Made by a program: the position numbers and the translations under genes. A stretch of DNA of 57,671 nucleotides, the filler included, from Jimgerdemannia flammicorona (taxonomy: Eukaryota): NCBI GenBank assembly GCA_003990765.1. It is 3 parts of 3 records of this genome, joined end to end, with 100 filler letters (N's around TTAATTAATTAA, not from the genome) between each part and the next. Parts side by side here need not be neighbours in the genome. Positions count along the whole stretch, not along the records: positions 38,523 to 57,671 come from RBNJ01002013.1; 2 more parts are not named here. One strand, 5' to 3'. Each line of letters opens with the position of its first letter. Position 1 is the stretch's first letter. Below are positions 28,451-57,671 of the stretch, in pieces. The notes under the pieces are model-generated. The model saw nothing but the letters and a program-made list of their open reading frames with translations, ran no database searches and was not told where the DNA came from.

Positions 28451-28477
28451 TCAGTCACAAGCTGATATAATGTGTAT

Positions 28478-30032: not shown

Positions 30033-30344
30033 TCTTCTTCTTGAATAAGGATCTTCTTGAGCATCCTTATTCATTGATCTAGTCCTGAAAAATTTGCTGA
30101 TCCCATAACCTCTGGCAAGGGATCAAAAAGTGGTATTTATGGGCTAGCATCTTCCCTTTATATTTTGGCATGATGGTGAAGGGTCACTCCCTTCATATAG
30201 AGCAAGGGTCTGATTCTGATCTTGACCAATCAGTTGATGGTTCAAACTCCTTGAGCTTCAAAAGTCTTATAGATGAGTAGTTGCTAGTATCATATCCCTT
30301 AGAGAATGGTTCAGACAGATAGCCTGCTGGTCATGGGACATGAT

Positions 30345-32645: not shown

Positions 32646-32725
32646 ATCTCTCTCTACTACAATTCACATTATACACACTTTACAACACACTTTCAAATCA
32701 TTTATTGGAGAAAGATATTAAGGAG

Positions 32726-34758: not shown

Positions 34759-34791
34759 AGGATGGGACCCTGATATATATCATTATTCTTT

Positions 34792-37700
34792 ATGAACAGT
34801 ACAACCAACATTTTCTCCTTAAATGTGAATGGGCTAAGGAGCTCTGGGTGGTGTAGGAACATTTTTACTTAACTCAAGGGATTGGAGACTGATCTCTTTT
34901 TATTGCAGGATATTCGGTGTAAGGATGAGGACAATCGAGTAGAGTGGACTAGGAAATGGGGGGGGGCTGCTGCTTGGTTTGGAAAGGTAGTGATTCTGGT
35001 GAGGAAGGGCAGAGGAGACTTGGGGGAAATCAGGAGCTGGGGTGATCGCTTGGTCTAGGGAGATTGGCATTGGCCAGGATGGGAATTGGTGAAGGTGGCC
35101 TCTTGCTACTACCCTGTAGCTAGGGGTGAGAGGACTGCATAGATTAGGGGGTTGCTGGAGGAGGGTATTCTCTTGGAGGAAGGAGTCGATGTTCTCAGTA
35201 GAGACTTTAATATGGTTCAGGATCAGCATCTAGACAGAACTGATAGAGGGAGGAGTACCGGGGGTCAAAGTAGAGGTCTGGATACATGGGAGGAGGTGGA
35301 GACGTTGAGCTTCTTGGGGGATATGGGCAGAACAAGGTGGGGTGACACCAGGGTCTACATGCATTGGGTGAATGGCTTGGGCACATGAATTGACTGGATT
35401 CTGATGGCAGAGTGCTGGGGTTCGGATGTTTGGAAGGCATTGGAAGTGGAGTGGTGCCCATGGTCTGATCACTGGGGACTGTTGGGGCAGGGGCAGTTTG
35501 GGGGGAGTGGAGATGGACCTGGACATTGGCGCCTTAACTCCTCCCTGCTGGCTGAAAAGGGGCTATGGGAACTGTGGGTGGAGGACATTCAGGCAAAAGT
35601 TTTTATCTGGAAGCATGAGGGTTTACCTGTGGCTGTCTACTGGATGAGGTTAAAAGAGGCTGCGAGGATTTATTGGGGAGGGGCTGGTAGAGAGGCTGGG
35701 AGGCAGAGAAGGAGGTGCACAAGGTGTGCTTCCAGCAGGCTGAGGAGACTACAACTAGATTGGGCAGATTTGCTCACTATTGTAGGGGTGGAGGATTGGA
35801 GGATAGAGAGAGTGAAATTGGAGATAGTGGAACAACAACAGGTGCTGAGGGAAGAGGAGGAGACCCATATGCAGGGTATGGCTGCTAGGCTACAGTGGCA
35901 GGAGCTTGAGGAGGGTGAGTGGCCTACTAGGTACTTATCAAGACTTCTCAAAGCTAGGAGAGTGCGTCATCGGTGGGATGGGGTCCTGGATGCTGATGGG
36001 AACATGGTTCATGGCATGCAACAAATCTTGGGGGTCTTGAAGGAGAGATGGTAGGGCTTGTAGAGTGAGGGAGAAGGGAGTGCGGATGAGGCAGAGATTG
36101 CGAATACACTAGATGAGTGGGGGCCACCACAGGTTGCTGGACTGAGGGACTTGACCTTACCAGTGCAGGGAGAGGAGATCCAGAGTGTCCTGGCAGCAAC
36201 TAAGCTTGAGATGGTGCCAGGGGAGGATGGATTGCTATGGGACTTCTGGAAGAAGATGGTAAACATCCCCAGAGTTTTGGGCAAGATGGCTGCTCTTTGT
36301 GACTATGTCCTTCAGAGTGGTGAGTGGGTTGGAGAGCAGGATCTGAGGCTGGTGGCTTTACTGTACAAAGACAAGGGAAGGAGGGAAGACTGGAAGAACT
36401 GGAGGCTGATCAAGCTTCTGGATATGAACAGGAAGATGGTGACTAAGGTGATTGTCGCAAGGCTGCAGAAAGTTGCCCAACAGGTGCTGGGGGAAGAGCA
36501 GAGGGGCTTTGTTGGGGGCAGGCTAATAAGAGATGGAACTGCATGGGTTCATGGTGTCATTGAAGGGGCCTGGGCCTGTGGACTAGATGGAAGGTTGGTC
36601 TTTCTGGACCAGGAGAAGGCATATGACCATGTGCGATGGGTGTGGCTGGGAAAGGTATTGGACCGGATTGGTGTTCTCCCAACATTTAGGCCTTTATGTT
36701 GAGTCTGCTGGAAAGTAGTTGGGCAGCTCTGACGTGTAATGGTCACCATGGGAGGGTATTTCCCTTGGGAAGAGGAGTACCTCAGGGGGACCCTCTATCC
36801 CCGATTCTCTATACCCTTTCACTGGAGCTGTTGATGGATAGGATTCACTGGAAGATAGCAGGGCTCTCTATATATGGTATAGTGTGGAAGGTGGAGGCCT
36901 TTGCTAATGATATGGTGGTTGGACTTGGGTCTGTGGCAGATGTAGAGGCACTTCAGGAGACTGTGGAATGGTATGAGGCTCACTCGGGGACAAAACTCAA
37001 CTGGTATAAGTGTGAGACAATGGTGCTAAGGAATGGGCTAGTGGGTGGGGACGTCATTGGAACAATTGTCCCTACTGGGGAGGTGGTGCAGTATCTGGGC
37101 ATCTTCCTCTCTGTATATGGTTCTGTCTTGCCATGAGTGTAGTGGGAGAGCAGGGTGAATAGTTGGGGGGAGGCCCTTCGAGGTTGGGGAGGCTGCCATA
37201 TCTCTCTAGCAGGTGGGTGTCAATCCTAAATGTATATTGGTTCTCAAAGCTGTAGTATGTGGCATATCACCTCGACTTCCCAGCATGAGTGGTGAAGAAG
37301 CTGACGAAGGTGGCTAGGGATTGGATTTGGGTGGGGAGGAGGTCCCAGGTCAGTTGGGATACTCTTGCAAGACCAGTAGTCAGGGGAGGTTTTGGCCTGG
37401 TGGATTTTCCTAAGAGGCTGCACTGCTTGAGAGCCTGGTGGTTGAAGAGAGCTGTGGAATTGCAGGGTGGAGGTTGGGTACCTCTGCTGCAGAAGGTATG
37501 GGAGATGCGAACGTCCCCTCGAGGGTCCTCCAGGGATCTGCTCTCTTTGGTGGGGCTGAATGGAATTCAGAGGCTACGGTTCAAGGGCTTTTGGTGGGGA
37601 GTGGCTGATGGAGCACACCGAATTGGCCTACATTGACAGGGTAATAAGGGGGAGGTGGCATGGGGGCCTAATATGTGGCATTGGGATAGACTGCTCCTGG

Positions 37701-38422
37701 GGGGTACTCCACTGGCTGTGTTCGATATTGGGGAGAGAGTGGAGTGTCAGCAGGGGCTTGGCCAGGATCTTTGGCTGAGTGGCTGGCAGGCAGTTGGAAT
37801 CGGAGAGGAGTGGGACTGGGTAGGCATCTGGTCTTAGAGTACAGAGGTACAGGGGTGGCTTCCTCCCAAGTTCTGGGTGGTATGGTGGAGAATGTTGTAG
37901 AGGAATGTCATGCTGAATTTCCACTTAAGGCATTTAGTAGAGGGTGGACAATTTGACTACAAGGAGTGTTATGGTGTTGGGCAAGCTGGAGATTATGTAC
38001 AGATGCCAGAATATTGGCTGGGAGAGTGTGAGGTTTTGGGGGAATTTTGGGCTGAAATAGGAGATAGACTGGGTGTGGGGCATCGGCTGATAGGGGAGGG
38101 GGGTCACTGGGAGAACTTAAGATCTTGGCTTGTGGGTGGGGTGGGTGATAGTTAGCTCACTATAGGGTGGGTGTTAGCAGTATGGGTGGGACTGGTGGGA
38201 CATTGGCTTTTTGTATTTGAGGAGGGGCAGCAGTTGGGGCTGCAAGAGAAGGTGTTAAGGTGGGAGGAGCTGGTGGGGGATCTGCTGACTAGATGGTGGG
38301 TGGGTTGGGGTCCTCAGGGGGGATGACATCATGGTTTGGTAGTAAAGATATGTGAGCAGAGTGGTGGGAGGGTGGGGATATTGTTTGACAAAGTGGTCTT
38401 TTACAGGGAAGGGGTAGGGGGG
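34792..38422 (+). pseudogene. LINE ORF2, disrupted
   Basis: Starts MNSTTNIFSLNVNGLR. Contains SDH, FLDQEKAYD, GVPQGDPLSP and FAND (decayed FADD). Confidence 0.92.
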
Positions 38423-38522
38423 NNNNNNNNNNNNNNNNNNNNNNNNNNNNNNNNNNNNNNNNNNNNTTAATTAATTAANNNNNNNNNNNNNNNNNNNNNN
38501 NNNNNNNNNNNNNNNNNNNNNN
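38423..38522. other. Assembly gap / artificial linker
   Basis: 100 nt of N containing TTAATTAATTAA. Confidence 0.97.
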
Positions 38523-38599
38523 TTATTTTTTTTTTTGTTTTTTGTTTTCTTTTTTATTATTTTATTACTATTTAATTTTTTTTTTTTTTATATTAAATA

Positions 38600-38900
38600 G
38601 TTAAAAAAAAACTATTTATTAGATTATCTATAATAGTTAGTCTTATATAATTATTGAGAATTCAGAGCTAAGAGATCTTTTTTGCCTTCTGAAACTAGAT
38701 ATTACTGTCTCTTCTATTAAAACTATATAAAGTGAAATTAAACTAATCTTTCAATAAAGTTATAATATTATTGAAATTATATTATAGATAAGATTAAATA
38801 CTAATTTAATTTAATCTTATTTTAACTTAATTTATTCAGAAATATAATATATTATATTAAATATTCTCTACTATTAATATAGATATTATTGAATATATAT
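38600..38900 (+). pseudogene. Possible hAT transposase fragment, heavily decayed
   Basis: IIENSELRDLFCLLKLDITVSSIKTI resembles the hAT VE..EFR.L...L.P...PSRKTI segment. Confidence 0.3.
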
Positions 38901-39559
38901 ATTTCTTAAAATTAATATATACTAATTAATTTTATCAAGCTACTAGAATTTTATTTTAGTAAAATTCTTATTAGAAATCTTAATATCTATATTTAAGATT
39001 TTATATATAGATAAAGGTATATCTTTTAAAAGAGTTATATTAGATTAGATTCCAAAAAAATTAAACTTTTAAAAAAGGTTAAAATATTTTTAAAAAAGAT
39101 CAAGTTCTTATAAAAGATTGAATTTTTAAAAAAGATTAAGTATTTAAAATATCAGATTTTTTATAAATAGTTATCTTATATTTCAAATTATTGATTTTTA
39201 TTTTAGATATTAACTTAATAATAGATAATATACTTAATAATAATATATTTTTACAAATAATTAAAATGAAGTTTAATTATATTAATCTTAATACAATAAA
39301 ACTATATACTAATAGAATTAATATATTATAGATAATTAAACTAACTATTAGCTCTAAGTTCTGAGTTCTTATGAGAAAATACTAAGTTCTAATTATCTGT
39401 TACAATAGAGTTCAGATATTACTTTTAGGTTATACTGATAAAAGTGCTATACTTATATTCTAAGATAATTAGACTCAGAATTATTAATAAGTCAGATCTG
39501 AAGATTCTGTGATAAGAATACTATTTTATTCTTATATTTGGAGAAAGCAGAGCTGAGGT

Positions 39560-40182
39560 TATATGTATAATCACATTATAACTATATCTATATACTTAAA
39601 TATACAAATCAAAGATTGGGAAGTTTTTAAGAGAGCTCTTCACAAGCAGTTCAAGCCTACTAATACTACTAAGCTAGTCAGAAACAGGTTAGTAAACATC
39701 AAGCAACTTAAGTCTGTGCAAAGTTACAATATATAATTCCTATCAATCTTACTTAAACTATTAGTGATAGCTAAAGATGAAAAGATGAACCACTATGTCC
39801 AAGGTCTGAAGGGAAATACATAAGTCAAGGTTGAGCTAGAAGAGCTACAAAGCCTTAATGAAGTTATGAGAATTACCAATAGGTTTAATGTTATTATTTT
39901 TGGTAACTACTTTAAACCAGAATACTATAAGAAGAACTACTTTGAGAACCATTACAGAAACCAATCAAGAACAGTTGACCCAGTACTAATAGATTGGATA
40001 CTATGAACAAAAAGAGCACCAAGCCTATTTCTGAAGAAAAAGACTATTTGAAGAAATCTGGAGTCTATTTCTTCTGTTACCAAATAGGATATATTATAAC
40101 CAAATGTTCTAAGACTAGCAAATCTTCTAGATCAGTCACCATATTGTCCAAAGATACATCTATTAATTCTACTATCAGTTAA
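39560..40182 (+). pseudogene. gag with decayed CCHC, family C
   Basis: Reads HYVQGLK, DPVLIDWDT (P.PM.LD-like) and GVYFFCYQIGYIITKCSK. Confidence 0.75.
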
Positions 40183-40185
40183 CCT

Positions 40186-40596
40186 AAGATCAATATCAAG
40201 AAGCTTCACCCAAAGGCCCAGGTCTCTCAATATTAAACAGAAGAAGTCATTGATCTTGACCTATATTCTGTCAAATAAATTACCATTTCAGCCAAGAGCT
40301 GAACTCTGGTGCTAACTGGAATTGTAGTCTAATGTTCTGAAGGACATTATGTTAGAATTACACCATAATCAGAACTCAGTGTTAAATATTATTTAGATAT
40401 AGATACTGATGTTATTGATCCAGACTTTCAAGGATAAGTTCAAGTTCTACTTATTAACCAGAAGGATCAAGACTACAAAGTCAAGGAAGAATACTGAGTC
40501 ACATAAATGATTCTAGAAAAGGCCAGTTAACCCAAGATTACAGAAGTCCAAGAACTCTCTGAAACTAAATGAGACTAAAAAGGTTTTGATAGTACC
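40186..40596 (+). pseudogene. dUTPase domain between gag and protease
   Basis: Reads KINIKKLHPKAQV...DLDLYS...TLVLTGIVV*CSEGHYVRITP*SELSVK...DVIDPDFQG*VQVLLIN...VT*MILEK...ELSETK*D*KGFDST. All five motifs are recognisable and in frame with gag and PR. Confidence 0.88.
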
Positions 40597-40635
40597 AATT
40601 AAGCAGCAAGTTTTACTGAAAATTGAGCTCAAGCT

Positions 40636-40960
40636 ATATTCATTTTCAAAGACCTAGTCAAAGAAAAAGAAGTTTAAGTACTTATAGACAGCAGAGCTAT
40701 AGAGAACTTTATCAATCAGAACCTCATCAAAAGCCTCAAGATTCTTATCAAGCCTGTATCCAAGAATAATAACATAGTTACTACAGATAGTATACTATAC
40801 CCTATTGAATCAATTGTCACCAAACTACCCATCAAGATCCAGAAATATTGGGAATAAGTAGACCTCAAGGTTGCATTACTAGAAGATTATAATCTGATCC
40901 TAAGAAAACTCTGACTTACAAAACATAACTTAGATATTAATTGATATAAGAATGAAGTCA
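40636..40960 (+). pseudogene. Aspartic protease, family C
   Basis: VLIDSRAIENFI (decayed LIDSGATENFI) at ~40678 and YNLILRKL*L (decayed ILGKPWL). Confidence 0.8.
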
Positions 40961-41149
40961 CATTACTTCAAGATGAAGTCAACATCACTATTAAGACAGA
41001 TAAGATCATGAAAAAGATTCAGATTGCAATACTGTCAGTCATATAGTATATATAAGAGAGTACTCAAGAAGGTAATATATACCTTTGTTGCAATAGTCTA
41101 TTCCAAGAAACAAGACCAGAAACTATCAATCAATAAAAGTATTAAGTTA

Positions 41150-44100
41150 TTACTAGAAGAATTTAAGGTTGTCTTTCCAGACAAGCTATCTGATCTATTG
41201 CCTATATAAGAAGTTGATCATGAAATTGAACTGATCCCAGGAGCTATACTACTCAAGAAATATATGTACTGTATGTTACCACTCAAAATTGAAGCATTCA
41301 AGAAGAAACTAGAAGAACTACTTGTATGAGGAGCCATTCAGCTAAGCAAATCTCCTTATTGCTCACTAGTCTTATTTGTCAAGAAAAAGAATGGTACTCT
41401 ATAAATATATATAGACTACCATATACTCAATAAGCTCACTGTTAAGAACTGCTACATACCTGCTACCCTTGATTAATCAAATCTTTGATGCTCTCAAGAA
41501 TACCAAGTACTTCACTAAGTTGGATCTCATGTCAGAATACCACTAGATTCAAATCAAGCCAGAAGATATTTCTAAGACTGTATTCATAACCCTCTTTAAA
41601 CTCTATAAATTCTTAGTCTTAGCATTTGGTCTCACCAATGTATCCACTATATTCCAGACCTTGATGAATAAGATATTCAAGAACTAACTATTTATTTTTC
41701 TATTGATATATCTTAACAATATCCTGATTTTTAGTACAACTAAAGAAGAACTTGAATATATTCAAATAGTCCTGAAAATCCTGTGAAAGTACAAGCTTTA
41801 TGCTAAGCTCAAGAAGTGTGAATTCTTTAAGAAATAAGTTGAATATCTTGGCCACATTGTCTCTGTGCAAGAAATTTAAGTAGACCTATATAAGATAAAG
41901 ATAATTCAAGAATGGCCTATTTCATCAAATCTTATAGAACTCTGATCCTTCCTTGGTCTAGCTAGCTACTATTATCACTTTGTCAGAAACTTCTCTAGTA
42001 TTGCTGAGCCACTGACTAATCTCATGAGGAAGGCCCTATACTCAGATCACTATACATATATCTTATACCTAGGACCTCTTCTGTCAATAAGCTTTTCAAG
42101 AACTTAAGAACTACCTGATCTATGCTCTAGTCCTACATATTGCAGATTAAAGTCTAAAATTTATAGCCACTACTGATGTGTTAAATTTTGCCATTGGAGT
42201 AGTCTTGTTATAAGATAATGATAAAGAACATCACTCTATTACTTTGGAGTTCTGCAAGTTGACCCTGGCTGAACAAAAGCTAGTCACTTATAAGAAGAAA
42301 CTACTAGTGATAATATATATACTAGATTACTGATAATGCTATCTAGAAAGTATTGAATTTAATATTATTACTGATCATCAATCTCTCAAGTACATCAATA
42401 TCTAATCTACTCTATTATATTTACAAGTCAAGTAGAGCCTCAAGCTTCAAACCTTTAATCTGATAATCATTTATAAGCCTGGCAAGACACTTATAGTATA
42501 CCAGATATCTTATTAAGACACCCAGACCTCACCACAATCATGCAAGTTACCTTGGCATCAGAATTTCTAGACTAAATCAGGCAAGCTTATAAAGAAGATA
42601 CAGTTGCTACTAGAGTTTTCTCAAATAAGCTCAAGAATATATATACTATTGAGAACAACTAGAACTATTATCAAAACCAAGTCTATCTATCTGAAAACAT
42701 AAACTTATATTATAAGGTTTTACAAGAATAACTCTAACTCCCCTCTTGCTGATTACCTTGAAATTGAGAAAACTGTCAAAAACATCCAATACTACTATTA
42801 TTAATCAATTATGGTCAAGAAAATCAAGAACTATATTACTAGTTATGATCTATATCAGTACAACAAGTCTACCAATCAATTGCTATAACTACTGTCAATT
42901 TTTACTAAGAAATTCAAGTAAGTTATAATGGACTTTTAACTTAACTGCCATAGACTCAATCTGATACTGATGCTATTATCATATTCATTGACTGCCTGAT
43001 TAAAACTATAGTTGCCAAACCAACCACTACTAATACTACTATATCTGAGATTGCAAGAATCTTCTTCAAGTCTATCTTCTATCACTATGGCCTGTTATGA
43101 GTAATTATCAGTGATCATGACCCCAAGTTTACTAGTTACTTCTGAAAAACTCTCTTCAAGACCCTGGGAACCCAATTGGTTATATTTACTGTCTTCTATC
43201 TACAAACTAATAAACAAACTAAGTGTATGATCAGAACTCTAGAACAGATGCTTAGAAATTATATTTCTTATAAGTAAGATAATTGTGATCACTATCTGAC
43301 TTATATAGAATTTGCATACAATAATACTATCTAATTATGGAGAGGAGGAATGGAGATTACAGATATGGAGATAGAACTACTTACTGTTAGGAGGTATACT
43401 GGTAGAGGATTTTTAGCTAGAAGATGGTATGGAATATCTACAGAAATATAAGAGAGATTTATAGTCAGAGATATGGCAGAGAATAGAGATTGATGAGGAG
43501 TGGGACTGGAATGGCATCTGGTCTTGGTGTAAGTAGGTGGTAAGATGGCTCTCTCTTAAGTTCTGGGTGATATGGTAGTGGATGCTGAGGTATAACATAA
43601 TACTGAACTATTGATCAGAATACTTAATAGAAGGGGGTACTTTGGAGTATGGAGAGTATCTGGATGTTAGGCAGATGGGGGGCATAGTACAGATCCCTGA
43701 GTATTGGCTTGGGAAGTGTGAGGTTCTGGGAGATTTCTGGGGAGCTTTTGAGGATCAACTGGGGTTGCAATCTTTGGGAAGAGGGGAAGGTGGAAGATGG
43801 GGTAATCTTCAGTATAGGTTGGTGAGAGGAGTTGGAGATGAGTGATTGACTTTAGGGTGGACTCTAGCTATTTGGGTTGGGCTTGCTGGACATTGACTCT
43901 ATGTACATATTTGAGAATAATGAATGATGTGAGAGTTGCATAATGAGAGTAGCTTCTACTAGACATTATAAATGATTGGTAGTGAGGGTAGAGACTAAGA
44001 GGGAGAATCTATAGGACTTGTGAAATATATTTGTAAGAAAAGTAGGAGGGGGGTTAGAGTCACTGAGAGATTAGTAACTCTCTAGAGAGATAGAGAGAGT

Positions 44101-44660
44101 AGGAGAGAGAGGAGTTTATATAGGATTAGATGAAGGGTGTACCAGTTCTATTGTATTAATATAATATAGATTGGATGGTAATTGGTAATAAAAGTAGAAG
44201 TCCAAGTAACTATAAAAAAAAAATACTGTCTAATTATCTACTGGTCTTTCTCCTTTTCAGTTACTCTATAGTCAAGATCCCAAGACCCCTACAAGTCTAG
44301 TCCCTTTTAAGAAAAGCAGTTGAATGCAAGTCTCTACTACTAAGAGCCTTATAGAAAAAATAGACAAACTACTCAAGATTGCTACTGTAAATCTTCAGAA
44401 GACCTAATAGCATCAAGCTAAGTATACTGATAAGAAATGCTATAATATTACTTATACTGTTGGAGAATAAGTCCTACTGTCTATCAAGAACCTTAAGATA
44501 TAATCTCAAGTCAACTGCTTATTGAACAAGTTCTAACTCAAGTATATTGGACCTTTTGAGATCACTAAATAAGTCTCTGTATCCTCTTACTGCCTCAAGC
44601 TATCTGAAACCATGAGAGTATACTCAGTCTTTCATATATTACACCTCAAGACCTAAAACT
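41150..44660 (+). pseudogene. RT, RNase H and integrase of family C (integrase interrupted by a LINE fragment)
   Basis: Reads LFVKKKNGTL, YFTKLDLMSEYH*IQI, FGLTN, YLNNILIFS, VEYLGHIVS, IISDHDPKFTS, KYIGPFEI. Confidence 0.88.
43339..44221 (+). mobile_element. 5'-truncated LINE copy
   Basis: Matches the ORF2 3' end and finishes gaagtccaagtaactat-poly(A). TSD aatactatctaattat (43323-43338) / aatactgtctaattat (44222-44237). Confidence 0.88.
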
Positions 44661-44728
44661 AGTCACTGCTCTACTCTGGCCAAATTTCCAAGCCATCTGC
44701 TCCTGTGATTATTGAAGATCATATCAAG

Positions 44729-44877
44729 TATGATGCTGAGAAAATCCTTGAAAAATAGATCCACTATTGCTGTTCTAAATATCTAGTCAAGTGGATGGGC
44801 TACTCTGAATATAATGCTATCTAGAAACTACTGATCAACCTCAAGAACTCTCAAGATCTAGTTCAAGACTTTAAGGT
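44729..44877 (+). pseudogene. Integrase C-terminal chromodomain
   Basis: Reads YDAEKILEK...KYLVKWMGYSEYNAI*KLLINLKNSQDLVQDF. Confidence 0.88.
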
Positions 44878-45210
44878 AAAATACATTATCTAATCCCTGT
44901 AGTGACTTTCTTGAATTATCAATGATCTATAACAATAACAAGTGCCTTATATATTGGAAGTTTACTTTGAGATCTCAGAACTAGTAGAATATTTAATAAA
45001 TAAGAAGTCTATTGAAATGAAGCTACTAGCTGAGTTTGAATCCCTCTCAGTTAGTTAGTCTGATAATAGGCTCTCTGTTCTATATAAGAATGACCAATTC
45101 CTGCCAATGTATTGATACAAGTTTGAGAAATTTTGGTTAAGTATATCTAGTCTTATATTATCTAAAAACTCGATGAGGACATTGATTCTTAAGGAAGGAG
45201 GGATATAATA

Positions 45211-45714
45211 GTTCTGGGGGACTTTTGGAGAGCAGTGAGGAATTAGCTGGATATGAAGAGAAGGCCAGATAGAGAGTGAGAGCACTGGGAGGATTTGCAA
45301 TCTAGGTTAGTAGATGGGGTGGACAATAGATGGCTCACTATATGGTGGGTTTTAGCTATATAAGTAGGGCTGGCTGGATATTAGCTCTTTATATTTGAGG
45401 AGAAATAGAGATTAGGTATATAGGAGAAGTTATTAAGATAAGAGGGATTGGTGAGAGATTTGCTGACAGGGTGGTGGACTGGTTGGGGTCTCTAGGGTGG
45501 GCAGTGTTGCTATCTGGTGGAAGGGATCTGTGAATAGAGTAGTGGGTAGATAGAGATAGTGAATGGTATAGTGGTCTTTTATTAAGAGAGAGTAGAGAGA
45601 GGGAGGGGGAGACCCCCTAGAGAGATCAGATAGAGGTTGGTACAGTGTATTATATAGAGGATATATAGGTGTATTAATAAATGAAGGAGTCCAAGTAACT
45701 ATAAAAAAAAAAAA
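45211..45714 (+). mobile_element. 5'-truncated LINE copy inserted at the PPT/LTR junction
   Basis: Has the LINE 3' end and poly(A). Flanks ggagggatataata / gagagagatgtaata differ only by G/A, consistent with a decayed TSD. Confidence 0.8.
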
Positions 45715-45722
45715 GAGAGAGA

Positions 45723-46174
45723 TGTAATAATTTTATAGTCATATTTAGCTCTAGTATATTTTTGTATCTTTTAGCTAGTCTTTTCTTGTCATTTCTTAAA
45801 TATTTTACTATATTCTGGAACCTTCTACTTGTTTAGAAATCTTTTCTCAGTACTCAGACATTACTAGAATATTCTTGTCTTTCCTTAGTACCAAGCAACT
45901 TATCTTAGCTAGTTATAGAACCTTTTGGAACATTGTAGAATTATATTAGTCAGCTTTACCAAGAACCTATTTCTTGGCATTTTTCTTTCTTTCCAAGATC
46001 CTTACAGATCTTTCTTCAGATCATATATAAATATCCTTATTCTCTGCCTGAATAAAGCTTAGAATATTTTCTCTCAAGAATACTTAAACCTTTAAGTATC
46101 TCTTTGAGCTACTTTAGACTAACTAGAACTTCTAGACTTAGCTGCTTCCTCTTAAAGAAACTAAAACTATTACA
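45723..46174 (+). repeat. Probable 3' LTR of family C
   Basis: tgtaata...tattaca terminal inverted repeat after the PPT, with internal tatataaa and aataaa. No partner LTR in the window. Confidence 0.68.
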
Positions 46175-46247
46175 ATACTTAACTATTAATCTATATAATA
46201 TATATACTATATATCTTATATTATTAATTTAACTATTTAGAACTTTT

Positions 46248-46686
46248 TAGTATCTCTAAAGACTAATAATGATAGAGAATTAATTTCAAATTTCTGAATA
46301 AGTATTATTAAGATTTAGTCATTATTATAATATTATAATATATTAGTTATATAATATAGAGCTTATAAAATTAATAAATCAAAAGAATATTAAAACTTTA
46401 TAGAACTTAATATATTTAATTAATTTGAATTAAATTAAGGTCTAATTTGATTATAAATCTTTATATCAACTTTAAAATACAATAACTTAATGAAAATACA
46501 TCCAAATTTAATATTCTTTATTATACTACATATATTTACTATAATAAGATATATCTAATAAGCTAAAATTTATTAAATTTGAATATGTTTTAGTCAAATT
46601 ATTAAATTTTGAAAAATTAGATTTAAATCAAACTTTGAATTAAATTGGAGTCAAATTAAATTTAATTTAATTTATTCAGAATACTA
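46248..46686. mobile_element. Older relative of the palindromic hAT MITE
   Basis: Shares the aataacttaa..aaaata..tccaaattt / aaatttg.atat.ttt.gtcaaattatt palindrome with 13130-13275 and ends gaatacta. Left end uncertain. Confidence 0.5.
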
Positions 46687-48036
46687 TATTTAATAATTAA
46701 ATAGTTTATTAAATTATTAGAGATATTTATATTTAATTTATTTTATTTTTTTTTTTATCTTTTTTTAAATAATCTAATAGAGTAATTTTATTAATAACTC
46801 TTAATCTTGATGATAAAGATTTGTAACAATATGTTATTAAATATTATACTTAGTAGTTATTAAAAGATATCATTCTGATATTAAAAAGCTTTTAATATAT
46901 AATAGATTTTATAGTCTTATAAAAATATGAATAATTTATTTAGTTATTTTAATTTATAACTTTTACTAAATAGATTAGTAAAAAATTTTAAAATTATATA
47001 GTAGAGAACTATTTAATAAATATTAACAGTAGCTATTATAATAATATCAGCTCAATAGAGGTAAATTATAAGGTTAGGGCTGCTATTTTTTTTTTTTTTT
47101 TTTGATAATATATTCTAATATAGTATTTATTTGGGGGTCTAGAGAAACTGCTAAATTATAGTTATTATAGATTTCTTTATTAAATAGATAGAAGTAGAAG
47201 TATTATAAGAAGTCAATACTCTCTCTATTACTGATTTCCTATATCAAGAAATTATCTGTCATTATAAGACACTAAGACAAATCACCACAGACTATGGAAC
47301 AAAATTTGTCAACAGATTTCATAAGATAATATATCAGAAATATAAGATTCAGTATATCAAGACTACTATATATTACTCTTAAGAAAATAGACAGATAGAA
47401 AGAACAAATAAGATCCTCAAGAACATCCTGGCTAAGATCTTAGATACATATGAGAATTAGAATAACTACCTCTCAACTGCTCTCTTTGTCCTACAAGATA
47501 TATGTATAGTTATAGAGTATACTTTACCCTAAGAGAACTGCTCTTTAGAGAAGAGGATTCTGATGGAACCTTAGCTACAAATCTAGATCTAACTTAGTGA
47601 TAAATTGACTCAGAAATCCAGAGACTATACCAAATCAGGAAGAAGGCAGAAGATTACATCATCAAGTCATAAGTGCTAATAAGAAAGAATATAGAAAAGA
47701 ATCACAAGAATCTTGAACCCATTCAAATCAGAGAAAAGGTCCTATTATATTAAAATATAGTAGAAGCCTCATAATTATAAAAACTAGAGCTTAAATAGAA
47801 AGAACTCTTCTATGTACAAGATATCAAGAGAACTACCTTCTGGCTTAGAAAACTCTCAGAGACCATACTGCCTACCACAATATATAGAAACAGACTCAAG
47901 AAGTATTATGAATCTATAAGAGAAGTAAAATATAATAACTACCCACAAGGTTCTAGTCTGCAAATCATAACAGTATATTCCATGACCAGTAGGCAATCTG
48001 TCAGAACCATTCTCTAAGGAATATAGCACTAGCAAC

Positions 48037-48040
<4 letters not shown>

Positions 48041-48108
<68 letters not shown>

Positions 48109-49219
48109 AGAAATGTGAATTCTCGAAATCTTTACTGAAAGAGTGCATCTCTATAGAAAGTGCTAACACCAATTATCATAGAAAACAATCTTTGCAATTC
48201 CTACAACCAAATCAATCAACTCCCCTCCCCTCCAACAATTAAACAATACATTGATCCCAAATCCTTACTTGAATTCATCAATATTCCCTCTCACCATGCA
48301 ACTACACATCTCTTCCTTCCGCCATATCCTCCCACACCTCCACCCTCTTGAACCCTTCTTCCTTTAACACGCGCGTAACCCCTTCCATCTGATGTCTCCC
48401 TCCAATCTCCATCACCAATCTCGGTACCCCAATCCCATTCCCACCACCTTCCCTCAAAAGCGTCCTCGCCACAACTCTCGCAATTCTCCAATGGAATGCC
48501 ATGCCTTCTTCCCCGGCCACCAACGCCCTCTGATCCTCCCACTCCTTTACATCAGGCTCCAGTCCTGCGTACTCCTCATTCGTGACATAGGGCGGATTTG
48601 ATACGACAAGATCGCACGCTTTGCGAGGTATCGCGTTGGTGATCGGGTCGAGCATGATGTCCGCCTGGATGAAAGTGACTGGATTTTGGAGTCGCGGGGC
48701 GAGTGTACGGGTGTTGAGGTCCGCGAGGGCGAGGGCGTGTGGGGCGATGTCGAGAACTTGGATGGTGGCGGATTGTGGGGGGAGGTGTGCGGCGAGAGAG
48801 AGAGCGATGCAGCCATGCTGGTGCAGAGGTCCAGGATGCAGAAGGGTTGGGATGGAGGACGGGTTAGGAGATGGGGGATCAGGAGGGTATGGAGGCGGGT
48901 CGTCCATTCTTCGGTTTCCCAGCATGGTATTAGGACTGGTGGTCGCATAATGATGTCCAAATCACAGAAGGGTTGTGTGCCAAGGATATACTGCAACGGC
49001 TTATGCTTCACCACCCTCATACGAACGAACCCTTGTAGTGCACGCCTGCTGGCTCCATCCATTCCATTCGCTTTCCGTTCTTGCAGTACATGCTCAGTAA
49101 GCCATCTAATCTCCTGCCTTGCATTTGCGATATTCCAGTCATACGCGGGCAGCAGCCTGTGCGCGAGCCGATTCGTAAAGGCCTGAAGGCTCCAGGGGGG
49201 GGGGGAGACATGACCGCGG
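48041..49219 (-). pseudogene. Processed retrocopy of a HemK/PrmC-family (Mtq1/HEMK1-like) release-factor glutamine methyltransferase mRNA
   Basis: Motifs PLQYILGTQPF, PPVLIP.WETEEW, ILDLCT, DLVVSNPPY, MEIG. No visible introns; frameshifts. 67-nt poly(A) at 48041-48107. TSD tatagcactagcaactact at 48022-48040 and 49220-49238. Confidence 0.93.
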
Positions 49220-49486
49220 TATAGCACTAGCAACTACTCATCCATGAGACTTTTAAAGCCAGAGAAGTTTGAACTATCAACTGATTAGTTAAGATCAGAA
49301 CCAGGCCCTTACTTTATATGAAGAGAGCTACTCTTTACCATTATACCAAAATATATAAGAAAGACATCAGTCTATAAATACCACTTTTCAACCACCTGTC
49401 AGAGGTTATAGGATCAGAAAATTTTTCAGACTAGATTAATGAATAAGAATACATATTCAAGAGAAGATCCTTATTTAGGAGGAAAA

Positions 49487-51086
49487 TATAACAGTGACCT
49501 CAGAATAGTAATATCATTATAGAAGACAGTCTTTTCTTACAAGCCACCAGATTAGAGTATAAGAAGATTATATAGCATAACTCATCTAGGCTATAATATA
49601 AGCAATAATGATAAATTATATATCATAATGACCATAAGATAGAGATCTCAAAGAATATAAAAGAAGGACCAGGAAACCACAGTAGTAGTAACTCAAATAA
49701 GACTCACAAATCCCAAAATAGTTTGAAAGACTCAGTATAAACAAAATTCCTACCACTTACTAAACTGGAAGGTCCAGGAACTACTAAGGCTTCTCAGTCT
49801 AAGAAAGGATATTCTAAGATATCAGAAGAGTTATGAGGACCTATATTAGAAGGATTTCTAGCCTCAACTTAAACACTAGTGACTCTTACCACTTTACCCT
49901 CTACTACTATGAAATGGAGACAAGGATCACTACCACTACTAAATATCTCTAGATATAATAAAAATATGAAATAGAAAATCTTCTCTATCAGGAATTCTCT
50001 CAGACTAGTCTCCAAGAGATATAAGATGCCATCTCTATAGATATATACAAATTGAGAGTAGCTAAAAAGATCTATTAGGTCTTCAGATATATATCTTAGT
50101 CAATCTCTAACTTAGAGTATACCAGAGTCTCAGACTTCAAGAAATTATCAGCCTGCTATATAGATGTACTAGAAGCCATAGTAGCCACAGAAGCCTAATT
50201 CACTATTACTCTCAAAAGTGATAAGATAGAAGAGTTCTGAAATTCCATCTTTGAGGATAATTCAGATCAATTTCTCCAAGGATTAATCTCAGTATTCTAA
50301 GGCTTCAGTATCTAGATCAAACTTCCTCAAGACCCCACCTTTGTTCTCTACTTTGTGGAGGAAAACATTATAGATTAGAGAGCCTCTGATCTCCTTCCTA
50401 CTACTATCAAATATAATAATGTTACCAGTGATAACATCATCCCACTAATCAATATATACAAAATGAATGAAATAGAAATATTTACTGACCTTATTTTCTT
50501 TAAAGATATTCTGTTCTCAATCTCTAGTCTTGATAATAATGATAAAGATAAAGCCCCCAGAATTCTGAACATTCTACTCTAATTTATTTATATAACTATT
50601 TATTTAAATACTTGAATGTTCTGACATTCTGATCTTATATAACTGTCAGAAATTATTCCAGTATTTTGATCTTATATAACTAATTATATAAGTACTCAAA
50701 TTTGTACTTACAACCTGAAGTTTTCTGTATTCAAATATCTTATTTAGTTATTGAATTTTATATTTAGCTTTATATCTTAGTAACTATTGAATTACATTTT
50801 ATATAAATACTCCTCTTATTTCTTATAAAATAAAATCAGTATTAAAACACTCAAGCATTCAAGTACCTAACTACTCAAGAGTATAAAGTTCCAATCCTTT
50901 ACTCAATTCCATGTAAGTAAATTCAAGAGACAATAGAACAGTTTAAAGATAAGAAGTTTGAGAACTATAAGATCTTGATAAGGCACTCCAATAGAACTTG
51001 CTTATAAGAAACTTGTAGTTGGTCTAAGAGATATACCTTAAAGAGAATCTGATATACTTGAAGAACTTAGTACCTACTATGTGACA
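49487..51086 (+). repeat. 3' LTR of family B (~1600 bp)
   Basis: Runs tataacagtgacc ... ctatgtgaca, colinear with the other two copies. Confidence 0.88.
49746..50582 (+). pseudogene. Third, strongly decayed copy of the LTR-encoded ORF
   Basis: Retains YEMETRIT, VSDF, VATEA, PQDPTFVLYFVEENI and KAPRILNILL*. Confidence 0.85.
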
Positions 51087-51499
51087 ATAAATACATATTT
51101 GAGATATTTATATTATTTTATAAAATATGGTAATAAAAAAAAAAATCCTCTCAACTCTTATAGAATTTTGAGTATAAAAATTATAATATATCTTAGTAAA
51201 ATAAAAAATAAAAAAATAAATAAATAAATAATTAAAAAAACAATAAAAGAGATAATGAAAGAGAGAGCGAAATTAACTGTTTATAGTTCTTCACAATATT
51301 CAATAACAATAGACTTCAGTACTGCTATATAGTACCTTAACCAAAATTGCTTTGTTGTGAACTATTTCAGAGTTGGTTGTTCATAGATCAGTTACAAGTA
51401 GAGTAATTCTTGAGTGAGGTCTTGTACTTGAGAATTATGTAAATATCTTCTCCAACGGCAACACAATTCCTTAGCACTTTTCAGGACCAAACGAACCAC

Positions 51500-52150
51500 C
51501 CATTTGAACCGGTTGGTGACGTTCTTTCTGCAATTGGTGTCTTATTTATTCGGCGAGCTGCTATAGAAGATATCAACACAATAACAATGACAACTCCGAA
51601 CCAAGCAGCGATATGCTTAAAATTCACAGATTAGTTCAAACTGTCGTTCGTAGTATAATGGAACTCACTGAGTGTCTTCGGCAGTTAGAACGCATTGTTG
51701 CGGTACTGAACAGAGAAGTCGCCTCCATGATCTTCATGTTCGGAAGGCAGACGAGGCGTACCTTCCCACGTCCGACATATTGTCGAACAAGTTAAACATT
51801 ACTACAAAATGGCCGCAGAGTTGCAAAATCTGTTCAATGCATCCGCTTCAAAAAATTGTTCTGTAGTTGATAAGAAGGAGGGTCTTTAATGGTGGCAAGG
51901 ATGTCCATGTCCATGTCAGAAGCAGTCGTACAGAGTATATTGTCACTGCAAAATCCCTGTGTAGCAGCGCTATCTTATACCAAGGCCAGGGAAAGTATGA
52001 CAGAAAGTGTTGAAACCAGGACACTTGTGGATAGCAATATTTGCACAAACCAGGGCAAGTACGACGATTTGGAGCCGCTGTATCGCGACGAAGTTCGAAA
52101 GCAATGCAATCGGTCAATTCGACTACAAAATCTAGTGGCAGGTGTATGAC
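51500..52150 (+). pseudogene. NB-ARC/TPR (fungal NLR-like) gene fragment
   Basis: LKIHRLVQTVVRS is a winged-helix motif typical of NB-ARC-TPR proteins. It is followed by the TPR piece NQGKYDDLEPLYR. Multiple frameshifts. Confidence 0.6.
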
Positions 52151-52239
52151 CTACAGATGTGGAATACAGTGGAATGGGTGCTAAAACTAGGCTAGATTTC
52201 TCTAATGTAAAACCTCTACATGGATTTCAGGCGCTCGTC

Positions 52240-53480
52240 TGTATTTCAGAATTGCCTTGTCTCATTTGCCCTGGCTGCAATAAAGCTCGACGTGGTTGTT
52301 CAAATAAGGTGTTATTAGTGGGTAATCTGATCCCAAAACTTTTCAAGGGTCGCCAGCGCCTATCCGGATGGCGGCTCAGCCAGAACGTTGTGTTGTCTTC
52401 TTTGTTTGCTTTGTTCCCAACACGCTTTCGTAGATAGCCAGTACCAACTTTTACAGTGAATTCGTCTTTTTGTTCCTGCCAAGGCTCTATGGCCACCGTA
52501 GATGCCTCAGGAATTGTTCTATATGTGGCTTCTTTGATTCAGACGGCTTCTTATAATTACCAGCGTCCGTTTGTACACTTACTGAATTTACCCTGGCGCA
52601 GCCAGATTGTTGCCATGACGGGGTTATGTCTCGCTAACTCCCATTCGTACCAACGTTTCCTATTTGCCCTGGCTTATGCACAATGCCGCCAGATATATAG
52701 GAAATGTTGTCAAGTGTAGGTATTCTGATCAAAATAGCGTCTGTTTGATCGGTGACTCCGCCTCGTTGTACCTGCCATAACAGAAGTAAGGTAAAGCCGG
52801 ATTGTTCAGAAATGTAGTCATGCCCATGTGCTCTGATTCCAACACCTTCTCACGGATTCCCAGCGCCCATTGACACAGCGGAGCTCAACCAGATCTTTCA
52901 GGGATGTTACCATGTCCGGGTACTCTAACGTGAACACCCTTTCATTGATTCTTAATGTCCGTTCGTACAGCGGCTCCACTTTGTCCTATTTGCCCTGGCT
53001 TCCGTAAAGTGTAGTTAGATTGTTCAGAAACGTTGCGATGTTTGGGTGCTCTGATCGCAACACCTTTTCACGTATCTCCAGTACCCGTTTGTACAGCGAC
53101 ACCGCATTGTTGTACTTGACCTGATTAAAGTAGAGCACAACCTAATATTGACATATGCGGACACTTATATCCCAGCATATTCTCATCGATTGCCAGCGCC
53201 CGTACCGCTTTATTGAACACTCCCTGGTGTGTGTGGATGCTCCGATCCTAAAATCTTCTCACGGATCGCCAGCACTCGTTCATACAGCGACTTCGCCTTC
53301 TCAGCGTCCGTTCGCACGACAACTCCTTCTCATGTATCGTTAGTGCCCGTTCACACAGCGGTTCCGCCTCTTAGTGTTTATCTGGCTGTAGTTCTGGGAT
53401 GTTGCCATGGCCAGGCACGCCGATCCGAACATCTTCTCACGGATTATCAACATAGTGTCTCTACTTTGTCATACTCTGTT
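52240..53480 (-). pseudogene. Decayed array of 42-aa TPR (kinesin-light-chain-like) repeats
   Basis: Reads NQVKYNNAVSLYKRVLEIREKVLRSEHPNIATFLNNLTTLYGSQGK*DKVEPLYERTLRINERV, with further broken units down to LNNHVELYCSQGK*DKA near 52250-52305. Confidence 0.85.
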
Positions 53481-56184
53481 AAGCACGGGCAAGGTTCGTG
53501 TTTGGAGTTGCCTTGCCATCCTCGATACGAAGCAGAAGATGTAAAAATTATACTTGCAATGCTTGAAGCCATGAGCTCGGGTTTCCCTATCACACCAATG
53601 ACGAGAGCCGCCAGTTCGTGTACGTTTCTCCATGCTTGCTGCGGATCGCAGCCTGAATGGCTTTTAGGATATCCTCTCGGAACATTTTCCTATCAACGTT
53701 AGGTACCCCCAAAAATTGGCGCGGGATGGTGTGATAGAAACCCTGATTTTAAAGTTACGAAATCGGGCTTAGTTCACATAAGTACCTTGCCATATACTAC
53801 CCATATATTCATTCCATTAGCTTACTGTGGTATACGGTTCCCCAGGTAAAACAGGTTGTGCAGGGAACCGAGAAGCGCTGTCAATGGTGTCGATGTGGTG
53901 TCCCAGCTCATTGGTAGCTGTCAACAGGCTGCGGATTGTGCTAACGGGTATTTACGGAACACATTCCAGAATACCATGAGATATTGTTAGTGACGGTTAA
54001 TGGTCGCAAACCACTTTCCAGAACAAGTAACGATTGTGCTCATGGAGTTTGTATTCACCTGCTTGATTTTGGTGACGACCCTACTAGAGCGATAAGATTC
54101 ACTATACCGTCCTTTTTTTGGGCGCATCCTCGATTCGCTCCGTTCGATTAACAGGCTGGGCGTGTTGCGTGCTGCGCCTTTCGGGAGGAGCCTAAATTTT
54201 AATTCTCCGTGAGCAAGTCACAAACAAAACACTTGTCCGTAACCGTTTGAAGTAGGGGCCGGATGGCCATGGTCCATTGTGCGACATGCTAGTTATAGAA
54301 GAGGGTTTTTAAATAATAAGTTTGTCGCCAAACGCTGGAAGTAATTCCCGAGCTGCAAGTTTGTTTGATGCATCAGCACATGAGAAATGCTTTATCATAA
54401 ACCTGTCTTGTAGCAAGATAACAACTGTATGATCTTTGGTTCGAATTGATTGTGATAAAAACAATAAATTACTTTCTTTATAATTAGCATTTTCTATAAC
54501 TATTTTATCAACTAAAAAAAAAAACTACTTTTTTAAATATATAATAAAATTAAAAAAGAATTCCGGATTCAGGATTGCTCAGATCAGAGCAACCAATAAT
54601 TCTTAAAAGAAATATAATATAAAGATATTGTTATATTAAAATAAAACCTTCTGATTGTACACTTTCTTGATATTTATTTATTAATTTATTTGATAAATAT
54701 TACTAACAAAATAAACTTCTATATAAAATGTATTTCTAATATATATATATTTAAAATCTCTTAAATATAAATAGTAAACGACTTTATATTATTTAAAGAA
54801 TAGTTAGCTATAAAATCGAGAGGTTATTTCTTAGTAAATAACCTTCTTATTGAAATGTAATATATTTCAAGAGTAACACTTTTATATATTTGAATATTTC
54901 GAATAAAAACCTTATGTGAGATTAGATATATCAAACTAGAGTTGTAGTCATGATATTTCCAGTATTTATAATATTTTATAACGGAGATTGATGTATATAT
55001 TAAAAAATGTCAAAGATAATTTGGCTTGTTCCATTATGGTCAAGTTTATCACGATGACAATTCTGACATACCCAGAAAGACGGTACATGCTGCGGCCCGG
55101 AGATGTGGGAATGTTTATCAGATTTTTGAGTCACCTATGGGCGTATATGCATACACACGAGTAATGGCGATGATTCGATACGGTGATGGGGTGGCTGCGT
55201 AATGCCGTCACGTGGGCCGAAAGCCGCAGTCATTCGAATTGCGTAAAAAGGTAAAAAGGGTGAAAAGGACAGGAGCAACTCTTCCCTCACCCTTTTACCT
55301 CCGTCAACACAAGACCCGGGAACAAATATCGTCGGAACCCAAATTTTTTTTTTTTTTTTCTGCAACTCCTTTCCCCGCGGCTAATAGAATTTCACAATTA
55401 TCCTCCGACGTAGTTTCCGAAAGTGCCGTGAAGGTCGACTAAGAAACTGACTTTGCCAGAACACTGGGCAGCCAGCTGTTGAATATCAACGAGCTTGGAG
55501 ACCGCGCTGAGGACTTTTGTACAAAACAATATTGATTCCCTCAGGGAAAGCAACGTTTGTAGCATTCATTTATACAATTGTCTACCTTGGCTCCGTACCT
55601 TGGTAATAGCATGAGCATGTGTAGATGTGAAAATAGTTTACTTTGAAACTGATCCAATGGTGTTCTCTAAAACCAGGTTCCGCCCAACACCAATAAGATG
55701 TTAGTTTTAGTTCCGATGAAGCCCACAAACCGATTCATGAGCAGATAGAATCCTTCATCTCCAGATATTATCGGATGGCGAAATCTGAACTACTGCCAGG
55801 ACTGTTCTGGATTGGATTTAATGGTGGCGATGAAACTCAGGGGCTGGCTGGCGGGCTGGCGGAGAAGGTTGAGACACCGACGGTCATGGAATGGGCCACG
55901 TCATTGTGCAACCGCAAAAAAACAATCGGACTGCTTTCGGCTTGACCATCGCAACCACGTCGCTGGGGTTGGAATGCACTATCATTGCTCACCACCATCT
56001 TCAACACTTCCACACGTCCTATACGGTATCACACAACTGAAGGATTCAGGATAAAGGCCACATATTTCAAGATTTTTCTCATTTGTCTGTTTTAGCAAAC
56101 AGTCGGATACTTGACAAATAGGGGTGCTTTTCCCAGACACGAGAAACTCATACTGATCACTACTGATCACTGTTCCTATAGATC

Positions 56185-56580
56185 AGAAGTGATGCAAGGG
56201 ACAGAACACCCCGGCACATCAAGCTTTTTGAGGATCTGGCTTCCTGCATCACGATGGAACTCTCTGCACCGGCGATCGGCGAGAATAGTTTGGGATGGAG
56301 TACTCCGACCGATCAACGTCTCCAAGCAATTTGGCTGAGCTCTACGCCCGCCAAGGCAAATGCAGCAAGTTGGAGCCACTGTATCAATGGGAACTAACGA
56401 TCTGGGTGAAGGCGTTGATACCCCAACACCTTCTCACGGATCACCAGCGCCCTTTCTTACGGTGGTTCCACCTTGTTGTACTTGCCCTGGCAGTAGTGAA
56501 GGCCAGCCGGATCGTTCAGAGATGTTGCTGTGCCGAGATGAACCCAGACACAGCAACATCTCTAGACCATCTGCCTTGGC
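56185..56580 (+). pseudogene. TPR repeat fragments with one internally inverted unit
   Basis: Plus strand: GTEHPGT, SNLAELYARQGKCSKLEPLYQWELTIWVKAL and NPDTATSLDHL. Minus strand ~56420-56525: SLNDPAGLHYCQGKYNKVEPP*ERALVIREKVLG. Confidence 0.78.
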
Positions 56581-57671
56581 TCTGGGTGGCGCGACGAGGT
56601 GGTTTGGACCAGATGCATCCCCCGGTGGCATGTTTGAGCGCGACATTGCTGGCATTTTAAAAGAGGCCCCTTGTTTGTTTCTCAATCATGTTTCCGCATT
56701 CACGCTCGCCGTATCTGATTGCCGCGTTGTTGTCATTGACGGTCGCCCATCGTACATGATTGGCCAAGCCGAGCATGACTGCTTTATGTACAATGCTAGG
56801 GTGCGCGAGATCGGGGTGGGGGTACGATTTCATGGCTCCGTCCGGCGCGTCCAAATTCGTACATTTCTCACATAGTCAATCACACAATACAAAGAAATTA
56901 TTTCGCATGTCGAATTTGACAATATTTTATCATTATTTCGCTAATGCGACGTTCGTTTGTGATATACATCGTCATTTCAACGTTAGGTTTATATTTTGTG
57001 GGGCCGGCCATTCGGAACGAGATGTCGACGTTCGTGCTTCATTTCTCATTGTGGGAGCCGTTCGACGATTTCCTTTGTATATACTTCACTTAAGGAAATT
57101 ACTACCGATAGATAGATCAAGCATTCGACCGCTCTTTATTTGCTGGTGTAGCGACAATTTTCTGGCGGAACATCACTGTGTGCCGGGTTTGACAAACATG
57201 AAGCGATCACCACAGCGACCTTTTTTTGCTATACTTGCACAAATCGGCGTGGGGTTTGGAATGCCCATCGCTAATCGACTGGGCGCGCGACTTATAAATT
57301 CATTTTCAATGACGACGACCGCGTGGATACAAGGTTGGGAAATCCGAAAAAGCCCCCGATGTTTCTAATGAGGTAATATTGTCTGTTCTTTATTGCGTTC
57401 GTTGTACTTTGTTCCATTCCCCCGAACACAATGACAAGGTACGCACACCCGCTGCCGAAAGGGTGATGCGCCATCACCGTCAGCGTGCAATCACGTACGG
57501 TCTCGGTTTTTCGTGTTTGGTGTGAACAGCCGGCGTGAACAGCACCTCGTGGCCCCGCTTGCGACATTGCCGTGATCAACAGATCAACAGTGGCCCGATC
57601 ACGCACGCTACATCCCAGTGTATGAAATAAAAATCCCAAAAGTCCAATGGAATGGATAAACGTCAAAAAAA

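Follow-up and report, generated by a model that had tools for sequence, protein, structure and literature searches.

Processed pseudogenes of messenger RNAs (mRNAs) that carry all the hallmarks of L1 retrotransposition have been documented mainly in mammals. Gene retroposition is described as little studied in fungi in a 2017 review of retrocopies (PMC5470649). In Magnaporthe grisea, the long interspersed nuclear element (LINE) MGL makes chimeric retrogenes (MINE and related) which are flanked by direct repeats of 10-20 bp and are fused to the 3' part of the LINE by template switching (PMC2104539). In yeast, processed pseudogenes are mediated by Ty1, a long terminal repeat (LTR) element (Derr et al., 1991, as cited in PMC5470649), and they are flanked by Ty sequence, with no signature of a poly(A) tail and a long target-site duplication (TSD). 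Our literature search found no mRNA processed pseudogene reported in Mucoromycota and nothing closer in other fungi; the one paper in which the term "processed pseudogenes" occurs along with "Mucoromycota" uses it for animals (PMC6993855). Here we describe a retrocopy of a methyltransferase mRNA in Jimgerdemannia flammicorona (Mucoromycota, Endogonales), found in a 57,671-nt stretch of assembly GCA_003990765.1 (the window), which is very probably a processed pseudogene copied from a host HemK/PrmC-type mRNA by LINE-type target-primed reverse transcription acting in trans.

The retrocopy shares with the processed pseudogenes made by mammalian L1 its colinearity with a mature mRNA, its 5' truncation, a long 3' poly(A) tail at the mRNA end, a TSD (19 bp) within the 7-20 bp range, the absence of a promoter, and neutral decay. 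It differs from them in its host, an Endogonales fungus, in a nick site that is not TT/AAAA-like, and in a decay dominated by C-to-T changes within a nest of transposons whose CpG sites have been erased; moreover, we infer the driving LINE only indirectly. With the MGL/MINE system it has in common the action of fungal LINE reverse transcription on other cellular RNAs and the flanking direct repeats (PMC2104539), whereas the present element is a simple copy of a single mRNA that ends in its own poly(A) tail and includes nothing of the LINE. The Ty1-mediated copies, as summarized in PMC5470649, are likewise RNA-mediated gene copies in a fungus, but the anatomy found here is unlike theirs. The event is thus clean and of an ordinary type, rarely reported in fungi, and involves no new mechanism. 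It provides a clean example of a processed pseudogene in Endogonales and indicates that fungal LINE machinery can act in trans on polyadenylated host mRNA.

Anatomy, parent gene and target site of the retrocopy

The window consists of three contigs that are unrelated to each other (1-19161, 19262-38422 and 38523-57671, of 19161, 19161 and 19149 bp), joined by spacers of the form N44-TTAATTAATTAA-N44 at 19162-19261 and 38423-38522, and features on different contigs are therefore not genomic neighbours. The retrocopy lies on the minus strand of the third contig (19149 bp), at 48022-49238, and all its parts are read on that strand. It is bracketed exactly by two copies of the 19-bp TSD AGTAGTTGCTAGTGCTATA (5' copy, 49220-49238; 3' copy, 48022-48040), which are identical at 19 of 19 positions. 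Between them, a body of 1112 nt (48108-49219), delimited by ORF (open reading frame) identity, by a transcript-like contig and by the reading of its 5' end, represents a HemK/PrmC (MTQ1-type) complementary DNA (cDNA) that starts at parental codon 13 and includes the whole of the 3' untranslated region (UTR). The parental stop TGA lies, in the restored reading frame, at 48291-48293, and is followed by a 3' UTR of 183 nt (48108-48290), in which an AGTAAA hexamer (48136-48131) precedes the poly(A) by 23 nt. The poly(A) tail is unbroken (48041-48107, 67 nt) and abuts the target directly; the plus strand shows a pure T68 run at 48040-48107 and, as the last A of this 68-A run is also the first base of the 3' TSD, the tail measures 67-68 nt. 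The body is G+C-rich and contains 57 CpG (observed/expected, 0.74). Together with the TSD and the truncation, the poly(A) tail points to an RNA intermediate. When the window was scanned mechanically for runs of at least 10 A accompanied by an exact upstream repeat of at least 12 bases, only the retrocopy, an old LINE described below, and one spurious match were returned.

To identify the source, the in-frame part of the downstream ORF was used as a database query, and 722 significant proteins were obtained among 1229 candidates. The best match is a methyltransferase of J. flammicorona (P0001), with 96% identity to the frame-B ORF of the copy; all others, mostly from Mucoromycota, reach at most 52%. 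The 90% cluster of the best match has three members: RUS25049.1 (318 amino acids, partial, on a 5560-bp contig), RUO97073.1 (P0122; 321 amino acids, complete, on a 4084-bp contig), and a protein of 201 amino acids (P0121) on a 19149-bp contig which is letter-for-letter identical to the ORF in the window. Since RUO97073.1 is encoded on a contig other than that of the pseudogene ORF, J. flammicorona has an intact and separate parental gene. This parental protein passes the NCBIfam model TIGR00536 (hemK_fam) with 156.1 bits against a cut-off of 115.5, and scores 174.4 with the bacterial PrmC equivalog model TIGR03534, under its cut-off of 199.1, PrmC being the nearest type. For the two broken frames of the copy, Pfam scores stay slightly below threshold (MTS, 22.3 vs. 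23; PrmC_N, 21.3 vs. 23.4). The NPPY catalytic motif is intact in the frame-B ORF of the copy, and the parental GxGxG stretch, the S-adenosylmethionine (SAM) motif, reads LCTGTGCIAL and is split by a frameshift in the copy. The source gene is a predicted HemK/PrmC-type, MTQ1-like mitochondrial release-factor glutamine methyltransferase. A metagenome scan with the parental protein gave 28 stretches that matched a pattern, among which one relative was confirmed (L001, 34%).

The public 201-amino-acid "protein" P0121 corresponds to the pseudogene ORF itself (window 48302-48904, minus strand). Its first ~30 residues are an out-of-frame translation, which marks the entry as an annotation artefact; the locus thus exposes an error in public annotation, where a protein has been read from a pseudogene.

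Two public runs, X1 and X2, share words with the window (word shares of 0.20 and 0.10). They are not on record as RNA and were taken as transcriptomes on account of their small contig totals (34-47 Mb) and of the depth of X1, which is 53 on the gene vs. 2 on a transposon paralogue. A 999-nt contig of X1 (depth 53) covers 48121-49117 without any joint, and no intron is present in the copy over this interval. Its end is separated from the poly(A) by 14 nt, and 3 of its differences fall in the 3' UTR. Relative to the window, the contig has 25 listed substitutions (the table counts 26) and two 1-nt insertions, behind 48318 and 48815, which restore the frame and thus repair two frameshifts of the copy. 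When these differences were applied to the window by script, the rebuilt contig showed an open frame of 275 codons ending at the parental stop, and its translation was identical at 275 of 275 residues to residues 47-321 of RUO97073.1. X2 covers three shorter stretches and has all of the X1 differences that fall there (nine of nine), which indicates that only the copy in the window departs at these sites; X1 and X2 disagree with each other at three places, and there the window agrees with X1. At every diagnostic site covered, the contigs of both runs carry parental letters only.

The parental alleles or strains also differ by an indel of 6 nt (Arg-Lys; window 49072-49077), absent from RUS25049.1 and X2 and present in RUO97073.1, X1 and the retrocopy, which traces the retrocopy to the X1-like allele. 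Alternative splicing was considered as the origin of this allelic difference and rejected, as no placement of the deletion yields splice-site-like ends.

Three frameshifts interrupt the copy. The first is placed in a C11 homopolymer at 49195-49205. Upstream of it, translation of the 24 nt that adjoin the TSD gives PRSCLPPP, which corresponds to parental residues 13-20 (RUS25049.1, PRSRLPPP; RUO97073.1, PRPRLPPP); these nucleotides are compatible with the parental residues at 23 of 24 positions for RUS25049.1 and 22 of 24 for RUO97073.1, and an indel-free alignment gives 19-20 of 27. Past the C run, the parental WSLQAF... continues in the next frame. The copy accordingly begins at parental codon 13 and is 5'-truncated, the 5' UTR and 36 nt of coding sequence being absent. 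The C run probably contains one extra C (a +1 frameshift), as judged by comparison at the protein level; X2 matches only 10 of the 11 C. An ATG at 49209-49211 is not the parental start, as its letters span parental codons 15-16 (TCA TGT, where the parent has Pro/Ser-Arg), and it is most readily explained as an incidental result of CpG-to-TpG mutation affecting an Arg CGN codon. The second frameshift (48815-48816) is the loss of one base in the SAM-binding GxGxG motif, where X1 has an extra G behind 48815 together with a substitution at 48815. The third (48318-48319) is the loss of one base eight codons before the stop, in the parental end ...DMAGRKRCVVAW, where X1 has an extra C behind 48318. 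No parental-frame start codon is present.

The copy is inserted in a relic of a gypsy element. The part upstream of the insertion in the gypsy sense (47144-48021, plus strand) aligns in reverse to a paralogue on the second contig (30276-31172, 82.9% identity), as does the part downstream (49239-50383, plus strand; 29165-30288, 75.8%), and neither has any CpG. The two blastn alignments overlap at 30276-30288, and a three-way alignment shows the paralogue to be continuous through a single copy of the target, which means that the 19-bp repeat is a genuine TSD and not a chance repeat; this uninterrupted "empty" site lies at about 30265-30295 (plus strand). On its minus strand the paralogue has matches to RVT_1, RNase H and, weakly, integrase, in an order that identifies the host as a gypsy-order LTR element and, given the reverse alignment, places the insert antisense to it. 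Counted outward from the retrocopy, the CpG-free flanks measure 1121 nt (left) and 1262 nt (right). The host relic, having lost every CpG, is far older than the insert. A 162-nt contig of X1 that bridges the site in empty form was considered as an empty allele and rejected: with 19 differences in 149 aligned letters (~87% identity), it represents a paralogous copy of the transposon.

Most of what a preliminary description of this locus had proposed from the sequence is borne out by these data. It had read the element as a processed pseudogene of a host methyltransferase mRNA, which agrees with the intact parent elsewhere, the colinear X1 contig and the empty paralogous site; a separate parental locus, which it had suggested seeking by BLAST, is represented by both RUO97073.1 and RUS25049.1. 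The perfect 19-bp TSD, the 67-nt poly(A) and the CpG-rich insert lying antisense in a CpG-depleted gypsy relic were all recovered. Its intronless HemK/PrmC-type sequence holds for the copy, the gene structure of the parent lying outside that claim. The start it had placed at the ATG at 49211 had to be abandoned in favour of codon 13. Both frameshifts it had listed (the C11 run and the GTGC motif) are retained, the former on different grounds, and the one at 48318/48319 had been missed.

Probable target-primed reverse transcription and alternative origins

The anatomy described above is readily accommodated by a polyadenylated host mRNA that would have been copied at a staggered chromosomal break by a LINE endonuclease and reverse transcriptase. 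A first nick would have opened the bottom strand where the 19-bp target begins on the left, and the resulting 3' end, which ends in T, would have served as primer on the poly(A). Reverse transcription would then have stopped, or the cDNA been joined, at codon 13, leaving a 5'-truncated and promoterless copy, and a second nick 19 bp away would account for the duplication. The insert would afterwards have decayed without constraint, chiefly by C-to-T changes at CpG, within the CpG-erased transposon nest.

Several points weigh against this explanation. The classical proof of a processed pseudogene is precise intron loss, and the parent is represented here by proteins and by transcript-like contigs, which we infer to be RNA. 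Both junctions and the length of the C11 run are read from the assembly sequence alone. The nick site, GATG/AGTAG, is unlike the T-rich site of mammalian L1. The LINEs of the window are broken, with CpG observed/expected ratios of 0.09-0.21, and none of them can be the driver. In addition, as the retrocopy has no LINE terminal motif, mobilization in trans would need the poly(A) alone.

To assess the candidate machinery, we examined the LINEs of the window. Two long copies (13445-19161 and 32645-38373) are 88% identical to each other and run into contig ends, their 3' ends and TSDs lying beyond. An old, near full-length L1-like LINE (4592-10437, minus strand), delimited by tblastn with the LINE ORFs, ends in an A19-G-AAG-A31 tail and has an exact 15-bp TSD, AAGAAGACAGAAGGC (10437-10423 and 4606-4592). 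Two 3' fragments are located on the contig of the retrocopy: a 5'-truncated L1-like fragment (43325-44237, plus strand) with an A10 tail and a 14-bp TSD with one mismatch (TACTATCTAATTAT / TACTGTCTAATTAT), and a second one detected by tblastn with the LINE ORFs (45199-45716), for which no TSD was found. At the three 3' ends, the poly(A) measures A10, A13 and A19+A31. A shared terminal stretch (AATAAA..GTCCAAGTAACTAT-like) precedes the poly(A) in these three ends (44190-44224, 45680-45716 and, on the minus strand, 4659-4690), and may correspond to a 3' recognition element of the family.

Five human L1 ORF2p sequences match the reverse transcriptase ORF at 16055-17671 over ~380 residues (E = 1.2e-23 to 4.8e-23), and R2 proteins match at 1e-7; the assignment to the L1 type is by best match. 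An intact and longer relative in the databases (P0123) has Exo_endo_phos, RVT_1 and zf-RVT domains, and the ORF at 15846-16154 aligns to its residues 116-173 (25/69, E = 3e-5), GDFN included, inside the Exo_endo_phos domain. Pfam searches of the broken LINE ORFs with E up to 5 gave no endonuclease match; for the ORF at 15104-15556, a PDB sequence search gave no endonuclease and BLASTP against P0123 gave nothing. These features fit a LINE of the APE (apurinic/apyrimidinic endonuclease) type that depends on poly(A) and could work in trans. Stops and frameshifts occur in every LINE copy of the window, and CpG depletion is far stronger in them than in the retrocopy (0.09-0.21 vs. 0.72-0.74); none is both intact and of the age of the retrocopy, as a source of the proteins would have to be. 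The actual driver must therefore lie outside the window, and attribution to the L1-like LINE family is plausible but indirect.

The claims made earlier about these LINEs need to be adjusted accordingly. L1-like, poly(A)-tailed LINEs are indeed present, as the proposed mobilization by the LINE supposed, while the link to the retrocopy is indirect and its driver is not in the window. The TSDs of the family, given as 16-20 bp, measured 14-15 bp in the window. Of the LINEs of this "resident" family, the two long copies lie on other contigs of the assembly and two short 3' fragments on the contig of the retrocopy. As for "recently active", the copies in the window are all older and broken, and such activity is a deduction.

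Could another non-LTR family have carried out the target-primed reverse transcription? The window has no intact or similarly young LINE, and the 19-bp TSD of the retrocopy exceeds the 14-15 bp of the two LINE insertions. On the other hand, the window's family is poly(A)-tailed, as trans-mobilization of an mRNA requires, and a spread from 14-15 to 19 bp is normal within one family. We therefore consider a different family rather unlikely as the source of the enzymes.

An origin by the reverse transcriptase of a gypsy LTR retrotransposon, with a template switch to the mRNA in a virus-like particle and insertion by integrase or recombination, is suggested by the abundance of gypsy elements in the genome and by the position of the insert inside a gypsy relic. 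However, no LTR or gypsy sequence in the same orientation is fused to the cDNA, which instead lies antisense within the element that it interrupts. Integrases make short target duplications, unlike the 19-bp TSD found here, and the poly(A) directly abuts the target. Since the host relic is moreover devoid of CpG and far older than the insert, such an origin is very improbable.

An artefact of assembly or library preparation, in which a cDNA or mRNA-derived read was mis-joined to transposon DNA, might be suspected where, as here, the junctions come from a fragmented assembly (contigs of ~19 kb in the window). A mis-join of this kind would not be expected to create an exact 19-bp duplication of a target through which the paralogue runs uninterrupted, nor to show 2.5% divergence from the transcript-like contigs, a strong C-to-T bias and three frameshifts, and we give this possibility almost no weight.

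Finally, that the locus is a functional retrogene or coding gene, as the presence of the 201-amino-acid ORF in public protein databases and its intact NPPY motif might suggest, is scarcely credible, given the out-of-frame beginning of that ORF, the destruction of the SAM-binding GxGxG by one of three frameshifts, the missing parental-frame start codon, a ratio of nonsynonymous to synonymous changes (12:10) that does not depart from the neutral expectation, and the parental letters alone shown by the X1 and X2 contigs at the diagnostic sites that they cover.

Decay of the copy after insertion

The processed pseudogene diverges by 2.5% from the X1 contig. The window has T or A where the contig has C or G at 21 of the 25 differences, and 13 of the 25 fall at parental CpG, reducing the CpG count from 61 to 48 (13 lost). 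By site class, differences affect 13 of 122 positions in CpG, 10 of 418 other C/G positions and 2 of 457 A/T positions. The 21 C-to-T type differences are distributed by context as CpG (13), CpC (6), CpA (1) and CpT (1). Neurospora-type repeat-induced point mutation (RIP), which changes C to T with a preference for CpA in duplicated DNA, was considered and set aside, with CpA accounting for only 1 of 21; as the changes outside CpG are mostly at CpC, the pattern is not Neurospora-like, and deamination of methylated CpG accounts for it better than RIP with a CpA bias does. A decay regime that scarcely touches A:T pairs is also in keeping with the pure A68 run and the identical TSDs. Within the coding region, the 12 nonsynonymous and 10 synonymous changes compare with 308:171 expected for random C-to-T changes and give no sign of constraint.

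The description of the insert as "young" is correct in that the insertion postdates the CpG-free host relic by a wide margin, yet at 2.5% divergence, with 13 of 61 CpGs already lost, the copy is not brand new. Transposon nests in this genome undergo a strong C-to-T decay directed at CpG, for which the locus supplies an internal clock.

The retrocopy may also serve as a dated probe. Tentatively, and as a possibility that we hold to be somewhat less than even, a poly(A)-dependent L1-like LINE would have been active after the nest had lost its CpGs, mobilizing host RNAs such as this mRNA in trans, and a position-dependent erasure of CpG would strike newly arrived, originally single-copy DNA merely by virtue of its place in a transposon nest; CpG positions differ ~24 times as often per site as A/T positions. 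If true, this would favour position-dependent mutation (driven by heterochromatin or 5-methylcytosine) over duplication-triggered RIP in a mycorrhizal, early-diverging fungal lineage.

Other features of the window

Apart from the retrocopy, the third contig shows 0 CpG per kb over 38.5-51 kb, with an abrupt shift near 51000. The region beyond (51001-57671) has a normal CpG content (observed/expected, 0.83-1.36) and is presumably genic; a Pfam search of its ORFs gave no matches. The stretch between the LINE fragment and the host gypsy relic (46100-47000) is extremely AT-rich, with a G+C content of 11-18%.

On the first contig, an ORF with a dUTPase domain (PF00692, E = 1.2e-16) is found at 4042-4488 (minus strand), in CpG-free DNA adjoining the poly(A) end of the old LINE, and is probably part of a dUTPase-bearing LTR element. 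The second contig contains a relic of a DDE_Tnp_1_7 (piggyBac-like) transposase at 20957-21187 (minus strand; E = 1.6e-5).

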